Shown: positions 17,285-54,394 of the stretch, piece after piece | How the letters are laid out: every line of letters begins with the position of its first letter | How positions within the stretch are numbered: position 1 is the first letter of the stretch | DNA from: a virus | Taxonomy: Duplodnaviria > Caudoviricetes | Strand: one strand, 5' to 3' | Virus record (IMG/VR): IMGVR_UViG_3300014204_013734 | Coordinates: 32,001-96,000 of that record | Length of the DNA: 64,000 nt | The notes under the pieces: model-generated | Seen by the model: only the letters and a program-made list of their open reading frames with translations | Told to the model about the DNA's origin: nothing | Databases searched by the model: none | Program-made: the position numbers and the translations under genes

Positions 17285-17370
17285 GCCTGACAAACCCAAG
17301 CAGCCTCTCCGTGGCGTCAGGCATCAACCCGTGGAACCTGCCAAATAGGTTCACGGGGCCAAACGCTTGG
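17285..17370 (+). ncRNA. HDV-like (theta-type) ribozyme 1
   Basis: P1 GCCTGAC/GTCAGGC, P2 CCAAGC/GCTTGG, P3 GCC/GGC, J4/2 GCCAA. Confidence 0.8.
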
Positions 17371-17400
17371 AAATAAAATAATTCACTAGGCAGAAATCGT

Positions 17401-17476
17401 TCACCCTTAGCTCAGCGGTAGAGCGACGGGCTGTTAACCCGTGTCAGCACAGGTTCAATCCCTGTAGGGTGATCCA
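17401..17476 (+). tRNA. tRNA-Asn(GTT)
   Basis: cloverleaf with CCA. Confidence 0.9.
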
Positions 17477-17488
17477 ATTTTTATCCAT

Positions 17489-17562
17489 AGTGACGAAGCC
17501 GAAGGAGTCGAGGCACCGGCCCGTCAAGCCGGATGAAGCGGGGGCGGGTCCCGTCGTCACTG
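17489..17562 (+). tRNA. tRNA-Asp(GTC), no CCA, atypical T-loop, C33
   Basis: AGTGACG/CGTCACT stem; loop CCGTCAA. Confidence 0.8.
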
Positions 17563-17643
17563 GTCTGGTAAATCAAGCAGCCTCCACGTTGGCACCAGAC
17601 GGTAACCTACTATCCTAAGAAGAAGTAGGGCTAATTGCTTGAT
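17563..17643 (+). ncRNA. HDV-like ribozyme 2
   Basis: P1 GTCTGGT/ACCAGAC, L3 TCCACGTT, GG for P1.1, J4/2 GCTAA, P2 ATCAAGCA/TGCTTGAT. Confidence 0.88.
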
Positions 17644-17690
17644 CAAGAATTTTTTGAATACTCTGAGAAAGGGTGGGTAGCTCCCATCCC

Positions 17691-17796
17691 GGAATCTGGA
17701 ACAACTGACCCGAAAGGGCGGTTCACCCAACAACCAGACTCTGACAAGGCTGGCGAGGTGGCAGAGACTGCAGGAACACTGTCGTTCCAGATTCCA
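17691..17796 (+). ncRNA. unknown multibranch RNA
   Basis: 12-bp closing stem GGAATCTGGAAC/GTTCCAGATTCC with three internal hairpins. Confidence 0.55.
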
Positions 17797-17807
17797 AATT
17801 TTTTGAC

Positions 17808-17884
17808 CGGGGTGTAGGGAAGTAGGTATCCCACCTGGTTTGGGACCAGGAAACTCGCGAGTTCGACCCTCGCCACCCCGACCA
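17808..17884 (+). tRNA. tRNA-Pro(TGG)
   Basis: cloverleaf with CCA. Confidence 0.9.
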
Positions 17885-17897
17885 TTTTTGATTCAAA

Positions 17898-17971
17898 CGG
17901 ACCGTGGGGCAGTCTGGTAGCCCGCGTGAATGGGGTTCACGAAGTCGCTGGTTCAAATCCAGTCGGTCCGA
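17898..17971 (+). tRNA. tRNA-Pro(GGG), no CCA
   Basis: cloverleaf. Confidence 0.88.
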
Positions 17972-18059
17972 ATCCGATGATCCAAGCAGCTTCCACGATA
18001 GCATCGGATGTCAACCTGACAGAACCTTTTTCAAGGGGTTTCAGGGCTAATCGCTTGGG
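17972..18059 (+). ncRNA. HDV-like ribozyme 3
   Basis: P1 ATCCGAT/ATCGGAT, P3 GCT/AGC, J4/2 GCTAA. Confidence 0.85.
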
Positions 18060-18066
18060 AAATAAT

Positions 18067-18143
18067 CCGACACTGGCCTAACCCGGTAAGGTGCGTGCTT
18101 CGGGAGCACGAAATTCCCGATTCAAACTCGGGGTGTCGGACCA
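18067..18143 (+). tRNA. tRNA-Pro(CGG)
   Basis: cloverleaf with CCA. Confidence 0.85.
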
Positions 18144-18199
18144 TTTTTGGGTAAAAACAAGGAATTCCTTGTGGGATTTACTTTGTAAGGAACTGAGTT

Positions 18200-18760
18200 A
18201 TGGCAAGGACAAGTGTAATTTATAATCTTTCAACAGAAGAATTCAAAACTGTTGTAGAAGAAGCCTTTACAATGACGGACATATTAGAAAAATGTGGTCT
18301 TCGTCCTGTGGGGTCTAACCGAAAAACCGTTCAACGCAGGGCAGAAAAAGAAAATGTATCGCTAAAACATTTGAAAAGCATACAGGGAAAAAGACCATCC
18401 CAAGCAATCCCCTTGGAAAAAACAATGACGGAAGATTCTTCTTATAAAAGCAGCCGTCTAAAAGAGAGATTGGTCAAATTAGGTATTTTGACTGACCGGT
18501 GTTCCATTTGTGGCCAAGCCCCTGTTTGGAACGGTAAGCCTTTAGTGCTTCATTTGGATCATATCAACGGAAACCATGAAGACAACCGATTGGAAAATCT
18601 TCGGATTGTGTGTCCTCATTGCGATTCTCAACTACCCACGTACAAAGGGAGAAACAAGTACCACGCCCCTAAACCCAGATGCGATTGCGGGGCTGTGAAA
18701 AGCCGACCTTCAAAACACTGTCGGAAGTGTGAAGCTAAAAACCGAATTAAGAGATCGTAG
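18200..18760 (+). CDS. HNH homing endonuclease
   Basis: LHLDHINGNHEDNRLENLRIVCPHC; stop codon lies inside tRNA-Lys. Confidence 0.88.
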   Translation: MARTSVIYNLSTEEFKTVVEEAFTMTDILEKCGLRPVGSNRKTVQRRAEKENVSLKHLKSIQGKRPSQAIPLEKTMTEDSSYKSSRLKERLVKLGILTDRCSICGQAPVWNGKPLVLHLDHINGNHEDNRLENLRIVCPHCDSQLPTYKGRNKYHAPKPRCDCGAVKSRPSKHCRKCEAKNRIKRS

Positions 18761-53005: not shown

Positions 53006-53053
53006 AGTAGTGACCTCCTTTCCTGGAACAGTATACCCCGGAAACTAAAAAAC

Positions 53054-53128
53054 TGGCAGATGCCGGAGGAATCGGACCTCCCAGACCGTCGGATTTGGAG
53101 TCCAACGCGCTTTCCCAGAGCGGCATCC
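53054..53128 (-). tRNA. tRNA-Trp(CCA)
   Basis: loop CTCCAAA, G73, CCA. Confidence 0.8.
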
Positions 53129-53137
53129 GTGAAAAAT

Positions 53138-53160
53138 TGGCGGAAAAGGTGGGGATTGAA
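53138..53160 (-). pseudogene. 3' remnant of a Ser-like tRNA
   Basis: only TTCAATCCCCACCTTTTCCGCCA remains; the 5' part is replaced by the endonuclease gene. Confidence 0.6.
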
Positions 53161-53198
53161 TTTTTGATTTATGACTCCTTCCGATAGGAGGTGCCCCT

Positions 53199-53888
53199 AT
53201 GATTCCCTTGTTTACGCAAGAAGAATTTGAATCCACAAAATCCCGGCAATTACTGCCCCTGAGGTGTAAGCATTGTGGGAAAACTTTTCACAGCGAAAAA
53301 TGTGATATCCAAAGAGGACTTCTGAAACACAGTTCAAAAACCAAAGATTTTTGTAGTCTCTCCTGTTTGGGGGAACACCGATCCATAGGGCGTCGTCTTA
53401 GCTTGACTTGTGAACAGTGTGGAAAACCTGTCAGTAAAAGGCCATCTGAAATTAAGCAATCTAAGCATTATTTCTGTTCCAGTTCGTGTTCCGCAAAATA
53501 CCATAATTCCAGAAAACATACAGGTTACCGGAGATCAAAATTGGAAGTTTGGCTGGAAACCCAACTAATTTCCCTTCATCCTGATTTGGAAATCCATTTT
53601 AACCGAAAGGATACCATTAATTCCGAACTGGATATTTTTATCCCTTCCTTAAAACTGGCTTTTGAACTAAATGGAATCTTTCATTATGAACCCATCTTTG
53701 GAGCTAAACAATTTGGAAGAATTCAATCCAACGACAACCGGAAAATTCTTGCCTGTGCTGAAAAAGAAATTAGCCTTTGTATTTTGGATGTTTCTCACAT
53801 CAAGTATTTTAAAGATAGGACTTCTAAACCCTTCTTAGATATCATTGAACGGATTATTTCCCAAGCGATTAGCCCTGAAACCCCTTGA
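53199..53888 (+). CDS. Zn-finger + PD-(D/E)xK/Vsr-like homing endonuclease, paralog B
   Basis: close paralog of 51160..51837. Confidence 0.75.
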   Translation: MIPLFTQEEFESTKSRQLLPLRCKHCGKTFHSEKCDIQRGLLKHSSKTKDFCSLSCLGEHRSIGRRLSLTCEQCGKPVSKRPSEIKQSKHYFCSSSCSAKYHNSRKHTGYRRSKLEVWLETQLISLHPDLEIHFNRKDTINSELDIFIPSLKLAFELNGIFHYEPIFGAKQFGRIQSNDNRKILACAEKEISLCILDVSHIKYFKDRTSKPFLDIIERIISQAISPETP

Positions 53889-53946
53889 TAAGGGTTCTCA
53901 GGTTACCATCCGGTACCAACGTGGAGGTTGCTTAGGTTTGCCGGAT
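53860..53946 (-). ncRNA. HDV-like ribozyme 11
   Basis: P1 ATCCGG/CCGGAT, L3 TCCACGTT, GG, J4/2 GCTAA. Confidence 0.85.
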
Positions 53947-54033
53947 CGGAAGGAGTGGGAATTCAACCCACGGACCCGAAAGGGTCACCCGCTTTCCAGA
54001 CGGGCGCGACGAAGCAGCATTCGCCTCCCTTCC
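53947..54033 (-). tRNA. tRNA-Ser(GGA), no CCA
   Basis: variable arm. Confidence 0.85.
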
Positions 54034-54039
54034 ACAAAA

Positions 54040-54118
54040 TGGCGGGGCATGTTGCGGGTACTGCCCCCGCCCCTCCCCCAATCGCGAATCGGGGGCATGC
54101 TCTATACACTATCACCCC
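54040..54118 (-). tRNA. atypical tRNA-like RNA, anticodon CGC, G73
   Basis: GGGG/CCCC-G-CCA; loop TTCGCGA; T-loop GGCAGTA; poor D arm. Confidence 0.45.
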
Positions 54119-54127
54119 ATAAAAGAT

Positions 54128-54214
54128 TGGTGCTGGAAGCCGAATTTGAATCGGCACGGACTTTCGTCCACAAGGTCCTTAGCCTTGCGCGGCTGCCAGT
54201 TACGCCATTCCAGC
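54128..54214 (-). tRNA. tRNA-Leu(AAG)
   Basis: loop CTAAGGA, variable arm, CCA. Confidence 0.85.
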
Positions 54215-54222
54215 AAAAAAAT

Positions 54223-54307
54223 TGGCGGAAGAACAGGAAGTCGAATCCTGACAGGCATTGCCTGGACGGGTTAGCAACCCGCTCCGCTACCATTACGGCA
54301 TTCTTCC
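54223..54307 (-). tRNA. tRNA-Ser(GCT)
   Basis: variable arm, CCA. Confidence 0.85.
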
Positions 54308-54321
54308 ATTTTTGATTGTTT

Positions 54322-54394
54322 TCCAAGCGATTAGCCCTGTATAAGCTACAGGTTGACATCCGGCACTTCGTGAAAGTTGCTTGGGTCGTCGGAT
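54322..54394 (-). ncRNA. HDV-like ribozyme 12
   Basis: P1 ATCCGAC/GCCGGAT, P3 ACT/AGT, J4/2 GCTAA. Confidence 0.85.

Follow-up and report, generated by a model that had tools for sequence, protein, structure and literature searches.

Predicted hepatitis delta virus-like ribozymes directly follow all twelve CCA-less tRNA genes of an environmental jumbo phage

The window analysed here is a stretch of 64,000 nucleotides (nt) of phage DNA, bases 32001-96000 of the 381,280-bp IMG/VR virus record IMGVR_UViG_3300014204_013734 (G000; 50.6% G+C), and the subject of this work is an element that follows some of its transfer RNA (tRNA) genes and is very probably a self-cleaving ribozyme of the hepatitis delta virus (HDV) type. 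This is a jumbo phage whose genome measures at least 381 kb and whose tRNA set is nearly complete, and every tRNA of the record falls inside the window. There are 36 confident tRNA genes, 35 of them called by ARAGORN and one, tRNA-Asp, by the Rfam tRNA model. The 3' end N73-CCA is encoded in 24 genes, while CCA is absent from the other 12, which are His, Asp, Pro(GGG), an initiator-like Met, Ala(UGC), Arg(UCU), Gly(UCC), Cys, Ser(CGA), Thr(CGU), Ser(GGA) and Leu(CAG). Directly 3' of every CCA-less tRNA lies a conserved element of 66-88 nt, which follows none of the CCA-encoding ones (12/12 versus 0/24, Fisher p = 8e-10). An initial annotation of this DNA, made from the sequence alone, had placed such an element after these same tRNAs, and it was found at all 12 junctions.

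All 12 copies can be parsed manually as one nested HDV-like double pseudoknot with P1, P1.1, P2, P3 and P4 in canonical order, and L3, J4/2 and P3 are as the initial annotation had described them. From 5' to 3' the parts are the 7-nt strand of P1, J1/2, P2, P3, L3, the 3' strand of P1, J1/4, the P4 hairpin, J4/2 and the 3' strand of P2. P3 has 3 bp and occurs as GCC/GGC, GCT/AGC, ACT/AGT or ACC/GGT; L3 reads TYCACG (U-Y-C-A-C-G; TCTCCG in the His copy), and J1/4 is GTCAA or GGTAA (ATCAA in the His copy). P4 is a covarying stem with a length between 3 and about 14 bp, and J1/4 and J4/2 are 9-43 nt apart. The J4/2 segment G-C-Y-A-A, in which the putative catalytic C is the first letter of C-N-A-A, is invariant in 12/12 copies and in 7 copies from outside the phage, and the U and the C-G of L3, with the equivalents of U20 and G25, as well as the base of P4 are also invariant columns across the 12. 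Pairwise identity among the copies is only 56-89%, and the catalytic positions are nonetheless unchanged.

A covariance model built from the 12 copies (R1) retrieves exactly these copies from the window and from the whole 381-kb record, at 68-88 bits, with the next best match at 12.8 bits; this was a check that the initial annotation had proposed. On the plus strand, tRNA-His(GTG) (17211..17284, A73 and one extra C) is followed by ribozyme 1 (17285..17371; G at the first ribozyme position, +1, in a G-C pair; L3 TCTCCG with the A of J1/4, giving a U-A P1.1; R1 76.4 bits), tRNA-Asp(GTC) (17489..17562, G73, Rfam tRNA model) by ribozyme 2 (17563..17643; G+1, G-C; 86.3 bits), and tRNA-Pro(GGG) (17898..17971, A73) by ribozyme 3 (17972..18059; A+1, A-U; 87.8 bits), 7 nt ahead of tRNA-Pro(CGG). 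Further along the same strand, the initiator-like tRNA-Met(CAT) with its U1.U72 mismatch (21631..21703, A73) carries ribozyme 4 (21704..21783; A+1, A-U; one bulged U in P2; 82 bits), tRNA-Ala(TGC) (22946..23018, A73) ribozyme 5 (23019..23098; G+1, G.U wobble; P1 mismatch A6.C; 75.4 bits) and tRNA-Arg(TCT) (23838..23911, A73) ribozyme 6 (23912..23985; A+1, A-U; 82.9 bits). Then come tRNA-Gly(TCC) (24304..24376, U73) with ribozyme 7 (24377..24464; A+1, A-U; 82.7 bits), 12 nt ahead of tRNA-Gly(GCC), and tRNA-Cys(GCA) (26044..26114, U73) with ribozyme 8 (26115..26190; G+1, G-C; 80.1 bits).

On the minus strand, the atypical tRNA-Ser(CGA) (47209..47297, G73) precedes the shortest copy, ribozyme 9 (47143..47208; P4 of 3 bp, A+1 opposite C, A6.C; 67.8 bits), after which an intrinsic-terminator-like hairpin follows. 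Ribozyme 10 (49721..49803; G+1, G.U wobble; 74.7 bits) stands between tRNA-Thr(CGT) (49804..49875, U73) and, 4 nt further, tRNA-Thr(TGT). The remaining pairs are tRNA-Ser(GGA) (53947..54033, G73) with ribozyme 11 (53860..53946; A+1, A-U; P1 mismatch C7.A; 85.5 bits) and tRNA-Leu(CAG) (54395..54477, A73) with ribozyme 12 (54322..54394; A+1, A-U; A6.C; 80.5 bits), the latter 14 nt ahead of tRNA-Ser(GCT). Except where another tool is named, these tRNAs are ARAGORN calls.

The position of the element relative to the tRNA is precise. Judged by acceptor-stem pairing, +1 comes directly after the single unpaired N73 in 11 of the 12 copies, and in tRNA-His two unpaired bases (A, then C) precede it, both in agreement with the initial annotation; the extra C of tRNA-His might act as C74, in which case its CCA would be encoded in part. 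Downstream of the ribozymes there is another tRNA within 4-29 nt in five cases and a terminator-like hairpin in one, the rest being followed by intergenic or coding sequence. The five with a tRNA so close behind them would be taken off by RNase P as leaders. A repeat of ~95 nt (CGTTCAATRAT...AGGGTTTRGAAGT...AAATACTTGA) was also seen at about 23986-24075 (+), 53765-53859 (-) and 51720-51815 (-), that is after two of the ribozymes, those of Arg and Ser(GGA), and after the CCA-encoding tRNA-Phe. Beside tRNA-Phe it is preceded by CTTACTTGGG, which resembles a P2 3' strand standing alone and may be what is left of a former ribozyme.

The ribozyme-linked tRNAs, one third of the tRNA set, include the sole representatives of His, Asp, Cys and initiator-like Met, and apart from CAT their anticodons do not overlap with those of the CCA-encoding tRNAs. 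They therefore look needed, not like spare copies. The initial annotation had counted ribozymes on 12 of 13 CCA-less tRNAs and on no CCA-encoding tRNA. The second part of this count stands, while the thirteenth gene is probably a sub-threshold, degenerate Met(CAT)-like, CCA-less tRNA gene that abuts tRNA-Cys (25971-26043, +), which brings the proportion to 12/12. Two other sub-threshold candidates were noticed, a Glu(CTC)-like gene with a clean cloverleaf and ACCA at its end (24564-24638, +) and a tRNA-like fold whose end lies one base ahead of tRNA-Gly(UCC) (24227-24303, +). All three were missed by default ARAGORN and by Rfam; relaxed detection shows the Met-like one.

Covariation was counted on a MAFFT alignment of the 12 copies, and the same alignment with pairing partners slid by 1-3 columns served as the control. 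In the proper register 92% of cells are paired versus 28-39% after sliding, double-sided changes occur in 16 of 24 pairs, and none of 500 shuffles reached the observed pairing. When seven independent metagenome copies were added, 91% of cells were paired versus 32-42%, with double-sided changes in 18 of 24 pairs. Covariation had been claimed for P1, P2 and P3, and it indeed supports these helices and also P4 and P1.1. The last of these, pair 24-40 between L3 and J1/4, reads C-G in 11 copies; the His copy has U-A instead, a single compensated swap which the initial annotation had already reported. The first pair of P1, 1-37 (counted as pair 1-39), is A-U in six copies, G-C in three, G.U in two and A.C in one, and the +1 nucleotide is A in 7 of the 12.

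The nearest described relatives are the theta ribozymes, minimal HDV-like ribozymes associated with tRNAs in Caudoviricetes of the mammalian gut (Kienbeck 2024, PMC10879173). Their cleavage site is at the 3' ends of phage tRNAs, in 77% of cases within +/-1 nt, CCA is encoded by only 4.5% of the linked tRNAs, and four of them cleave in vitro, with activity lost on a C-to-U change (PMC10879173). The elements described here resemble them in several ways. The predicted cut site comes directly after the tRNA 3' end, and in all 12 copies it lies within the +/-5 nt by which theta ribozymes are assigned to tRNAs; the linked tRNAs almost never encode CCA and cover many amino acids; and the core shares P3 ACC/GGT, L3 U-CC-ACGY, a P1.1 with G(G) and the J4/2 CUAA. 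Theta phages often have genes for both a CCA-type nucleotidyltransferase and an RNA ligase; CCA-type transferases are enriched 250-fold and DRB0094-type RNA ligases 140-fold (PMC10879173), and the present record likewise has a CCA-type nucleotidyltransferase domain (PF01743) and an RNA_ligase-family gene (PF09414).

There are also differences, and those that the initial annotation had pointed out, A at +1 and the mostly long P4, are real departures from the published form. The theta sequences listed by Kienbeck et al. consist of a P1 starting with G, J1/2, P2, ACC, T, CC, ACGY, GGT, the 3' strand of P1, GG, a linker of 5-7 nt, CTAA and the 3' strand of P2 (PMC10879173). Our copies, unlike these, have a real P4 stem, the shortest of 3 bp and the longest of about 14 bp, and so fall outside the minimal build, which has G at +1, a short J1/2 and a brief linker for P4/L4. 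Unlike theta ribozymes, with G at +1 and mostly G.U, they have the A+1 and first-pair counts given above. Finally, the phage comes from landfill and groundwater and not from the mammalian gut, which is a matter of distribution and not of definition. PMC10879173 gives no number of copies per genome, and the high copy number noted in the initial annotation is thus without a comparator; our literature search found no later paper on tRNA-linked HDV-like ribozymes.

The initial annotation had also regarded sense tRNAs in a non-recoded genome as unusual. The genome is indeed non-recoded. With code 11, open reading frames (ORFs) cover 0.908 of it, and with codes 15 and 4 the figure is 0.917-0.918; no suppressor tRNA occurs among the tRNAs of the record; with so tiny a gain and no suppressor, recoding was rejected and the genome is taken as standard-code. 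However, theta-linked tRNAs include all amino acids, about one fifth of them being suppressors and ~80% sense tRNAs, and of the phages with tRNA-linked theta ribozymes 53% and 6% look recoded while ~41% use code 11 (PMC10879173). Sense tRNAs in a non-recoded genome are therefore not unusual.

Among Rfam families the best match is drz-Fpra-1 (RF02682) of Faecalibacterium prausnitzii, which shares with the copies a P4 stem and, in the His copy, an L3 of the form UCU..CG with an A after P1. The RF02682 model aligns end to end on the His copy, with its start precisely at the predicted +1 and the J4/2 C in the right place. In this comparison with HDV models, of a kind proposed in the initial annotation, the His copy has 35.5 bits, under the gathering score of 44, and the other copies have a lower score or none. 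We know of no tRNA linkage described for the drz-Fpra-1 ribozyme. Taken together, the elements are of a known kind, the theta ribozymes, in a P4-bearing environmental form, and not a new kind.

Relatives were sought in several ways. The stretch itself is present in one landfill metagenome run and, from a different study, in two groundwater runs. The DNA contigs of both habitats show no difference from the window and thus offer no natural variants, and no RNA run was among the sequencing runs carrying the stretch. A loose pattern scan of IMG/VR gave at least 117 single matches, all of them due to chance by R1 screening, while a tight pattern gave no match in IMG/VR outside the own record. The tight pattern also gave 27 metagenome loci and 8 genome loci, of which R1 scores six (L165, L155, L149, L161 and L164, and L151 weakly) and none, respectively. 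R1 had no match in five related phage records, a BLAST search of one ribozyme against GenBank phages returned chance matches only, and megablast of the tRNA cluster found nothing beyond tRNA-Gly matches.

One of these loci is L165, a contig of an unrelated phage with 44% G+C in which a CCA-less tRNA-Arg(UCU) is followed by the same P4-bearing, A+1 form of the ribozyme. In comparison to the Arg copy of our phage, the A+1-U pair is kept and the other six pairs of P1 are all changed (ATCCGAC/GTCGGAT here, ATTGGGA/TCCCAAT in L165). That the A-U pair is kept in a P1 that has otherwise fully covaried argues that the A-U form is under selection. The L165 module is flanked on one side by a T4 Rnl1-like RNA ligase and on the other by a DHH phosphoesterase, and a nucleotidyltransferase is encoded close by. 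Predicted P4-bearing HDV-like ribozymes, two or three per contig, were also seen on metagenome contigs with 24-25% G+C: L155 (1611-1682, 2738-2808 and 3561-3631), L149 (1392-1462 and 2122-2191) and L161 (same as L149). These have G+1 and the P1 GGGAAGC/GCUUCCU, and no tRNA is detectable upstream of them; one is preceded by a long, AT-rich hairpin whose stem reads GGGGG...CCCCC-A.

The closest relative found through a shared protein is the complete 436-kb phage G001, in which almost all of the 67 tRNAs encode CCA and R1 detects no ribozyme. It also has a CCA-encoding tRNA with the anticodon CUA, called Pyl by ARAGORN and possibly an amber suppressor (L146, G001:C1:241700-242200). Another relative, the 376-kb phage G002, has nine tRNAs, eight of them CCA-less (L144, G002:C1:173200-180400), and these bear other structured trailers that R1 does not match, such as the 10-bp hairpin CTCCCACCAT/ATGGTGGGAG. 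With G001 free of ribozymes and other trailers in G002, the modules look specific to this phage lineage. A separate origin of the two tRNA sets was considered and dropped, as there was no sign of it: the best identity to G001 tRNAs is 0.72 for the ribozyme-linked and 0.73 for the CCA-encoding tRNAs.

HDV-like cleavage leaves a 2',3'-cyclic phosphate on the upstream RNA and a 5'-OH on the ribozyme (PMC13635239), and the main text of the theta paper never mentions the cyclic phosphate (PMC10879173). The record contains one class-II nucleotidyltransferase domain (the PF01743 match, 62 bits), located outside the window in an ORF of 3098 amino acids (aa) (locus L125, G000:C1:146143-155439); in the PDB it is matched best by poly(A) polymerases and CCA-adding enzymes (E 1e-15), and the GGxVR..DxD and RRD motifs are present. 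Immediately N-terminal of it, the two HxTx motifs of 2H phosphoesterases (H46-T-T-F and H137-A-T-I) occur in a domain whose neighbours in a protein atlas all belong to the 2H clan (0.78-0.81, a lead only). The same ORF also holds a weak ATLF-like zincin match and a type IB topoisomerase core, and its ortholog in G001 is 63% identical over aa 6-480. Neither Tpt1/KptA nor a polynucleotide kinase 3'-phosphatase was found in the record. The fusion of the 2H domain and the nucleotidyltransferase could open the cyclic phosphate and add CCA.

Other RNA-related genes lie in the window. An intein-containing RtcB RNA ligase is encoded at 37052-39538 (-), and a release-factor-like protein of 190 aa, which matches release factor 1 (RF1) domain 3 and PrfH, at 26316-26888 (+); together they recall the bacterial repair pair RtcB/PrfH. 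RtcB joins 2',3'-cyclic phosphate and 5'-OH ends, exactly those which HDV-type cleavage makes. Inside the tRNA island there is, moreover, a match to the Y-RNA-like YrlA family (RF02553; 19278-19379, +; 38.4 bits, E 1e-5, below gathering), and directly downstream of it a 653-aa ORF with a TROVE (Ro60) domain (19433-21394, +), which looks like a phage-borne Ro/Y RNA pair.

We consider it highly probable that the 12 elements are cis-acting HDV-like self-cleaving ribozymes, full-size, P4-bearing relatives of theta ribozymes. Their role in trimming tRNA 3' ends, which the initial annotation had put forward, is well supported at the level of sequence by the anatomy, the catalytic positions, the covariation in five helices, the junction at N73 and the split of 12/12 versus 0/24. 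The ribozyme would be transcribed as the 3' trailer of a CCA-less tRNA, and upon folding of P1, P1.1, P2, P3 and P4 the J4/2 cytosine and a bound Mg2+ would act as catalysts, co-transcriptionally. In such a reaction the 2'-OH of the last tRNA nucleotide would attack the phosphate 5' of ribozyme +1 and release a tRNA which ends at N73 (N73 and C74 for His) with a 2',3'-cyclic phosphate. The ribozyme, with its 5'-OH, would stay on the downstream RNA and either be stripped by RNase P as the leader of the next tRNA or remain at the 5' end of a message. We infer that the tRNA end would then be healed and CCA added by a nucleotidyltransferase, either the CCA-adding enzyme of the host or the 2H-phosphoesterase/class-II nucleotidyltransferase module of the phage; the 24 other tRNAs encode CCA and would need no such cut. 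The predicted product resembles that of the route by RNase Z and CCA-adding enzyme, a tRNA cut after the discriminator and in need of CCA. RNase Z cleavage leaves a 3'-OH. In contrast, the cyclic phosphate left by an HDV-type cut would first have to be opened and removed (PMC13635239).

Several observations weigh against this interpretation. One is the first pair of P1, as the G1.U37 wobble has been called essential and G1 invariant in HDV-like ribozymes (PMC8495972), and the wobble is kept in only 2 of the 12 copies. P1 mismatches occur in four copies (A6.C in Ala, Leu and Ser(CGA), A1.C in Ser(CGA), C7.A in Ser(GGA)), so that some copies may be slow or dead. These two facts would be expected if the elements were HDV-like by descent but mostly weak catalysts, that is slow or conditional processing sites, timers and not simple constitutive cutters, by which one third of the tRNAs would be set free late, for example only once a phage factor appears or Mg2+ rises; regulated scission has also been raised by Kienbeck et al. 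(PMC10879173). Such timers seem improbable to us, however, as the catalytic positions are invariant in 12/12 copies, no regulator can be named, and the retention of A1-U37 in the independent phage of L165, despite a wholly changed rest of P1, points to selection on a working form. A third difficulty is that no copy reaches the gathering score of any Rfam HDV family (RF00094 24.6 versus 50, RF01787 18.6 versus 37, and RF02682 as given above), as might be the case for non-catalytic trailers, for example protein-binding or terminator-like ones, which merely resemble HDV ribozymes. It is hard to see, though, why such trailers would covary as a full double pseudoknot, including the 1-bp P1.1, keep the exact catalytic nucleotides among copies 56-89% identical, and have a core nearly identical to that of theta ribozymes validated in vitro; we give this explanation the least credence of all.

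It could also be asked which of the two cleavage products matters. If the ribozyme mainly served the downstream RNA, as insulation of the next tRNA or message and as its structured 5'-OH end, the 3' end of the upstream tRNA would be a by-product that host RNases could make as well. The five ribozymes close to a next tRNA would fit, as would the others, which stand ahead of ORFs and in one case ahead of a terminator, and many isolated theta ribozymes lie upstream of genes in sense orientation (PMC10879173). This explanation nevertheless leaves unexplained both the exclusive link to CCA-less tRNAs, with no ribozyme on 24 CCA-encoding tRNAs of the same arrays, and the exact placement of +1 after N73, and we find it distinctly unlikely.

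The remaining objections to tRNA trimming by the ribozymes concern proteins. A metallo-beta-lactamase (MBL)-fold protein is encoded at 45263-46318 (+), at a distance of about 0.8 kb from where the Ser(CGA) ribozyme ends; it resembles RNase Z weakly and only in part (37.6 bits versus a cut-off of 293), and it could provide a protein route to the same tRNA ends. The 2H domain lies below threshold (PF13563, E 3e-4, 21 bits versus the Pfam cut-off of 27), the nucleotidyltransferase may be a poly(A) polymerase, and G001, which lacks ribozymes and encodes CCA in almost all of its tRNAs, has this 2H-nucleotidyltransferase protein too, so the enzyme is not tied to ribozymes. The 2H enzymes also include Acb1, which counters the cyclic oligonucleotide-based antiphage signalling system (CBASS). 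The link between the fusion and the ribozymes is therefore offered as a hypothesis. In a stronger version, full-size, P4-bearing HDV-like ribozymes that trim tRNAs would form an environmental clade of their own and work with a Watson-Crick A1-U37 instead of G.U, and in this phage they and the fused 2H cyclic-phosphodiesterase/CCA-adding enzyme would make up a self-contained, host-independent pathway maturing one third of a complete tRNA set. This we put forward tentatively, as a possibility that is rather less probable than its failure.

Self-cleaving ribozymes acting in cis thus seem the best account of the 12 elements, and they offer a good experimental system, which combines the loss of G.U, the P4-bearing build, a clean two-class tRNA set and an end-healing step. 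With 12 natural covarying sequences, both the need for the G.U wobble in HDV-like catalysis and the role of P4 can be tested. A step is also raised beyond the 2024 paper, namely the removal of the tRNA 2',3'-cyclic phosphate before CCA addition, for which a candidate enzyme can be named. As a minimal theta descriptor would miss the P4-bearing form, the spread of tRNA-linked ribozymes is probably underestimated. The predicted making of tRNA 3' ends by ribozymes would then not be confined to gut phages or to stop-codon recoding, as it would extend to a standard-code environmental jumbo phage and, within it, to all of its CCA-less tRNAs.

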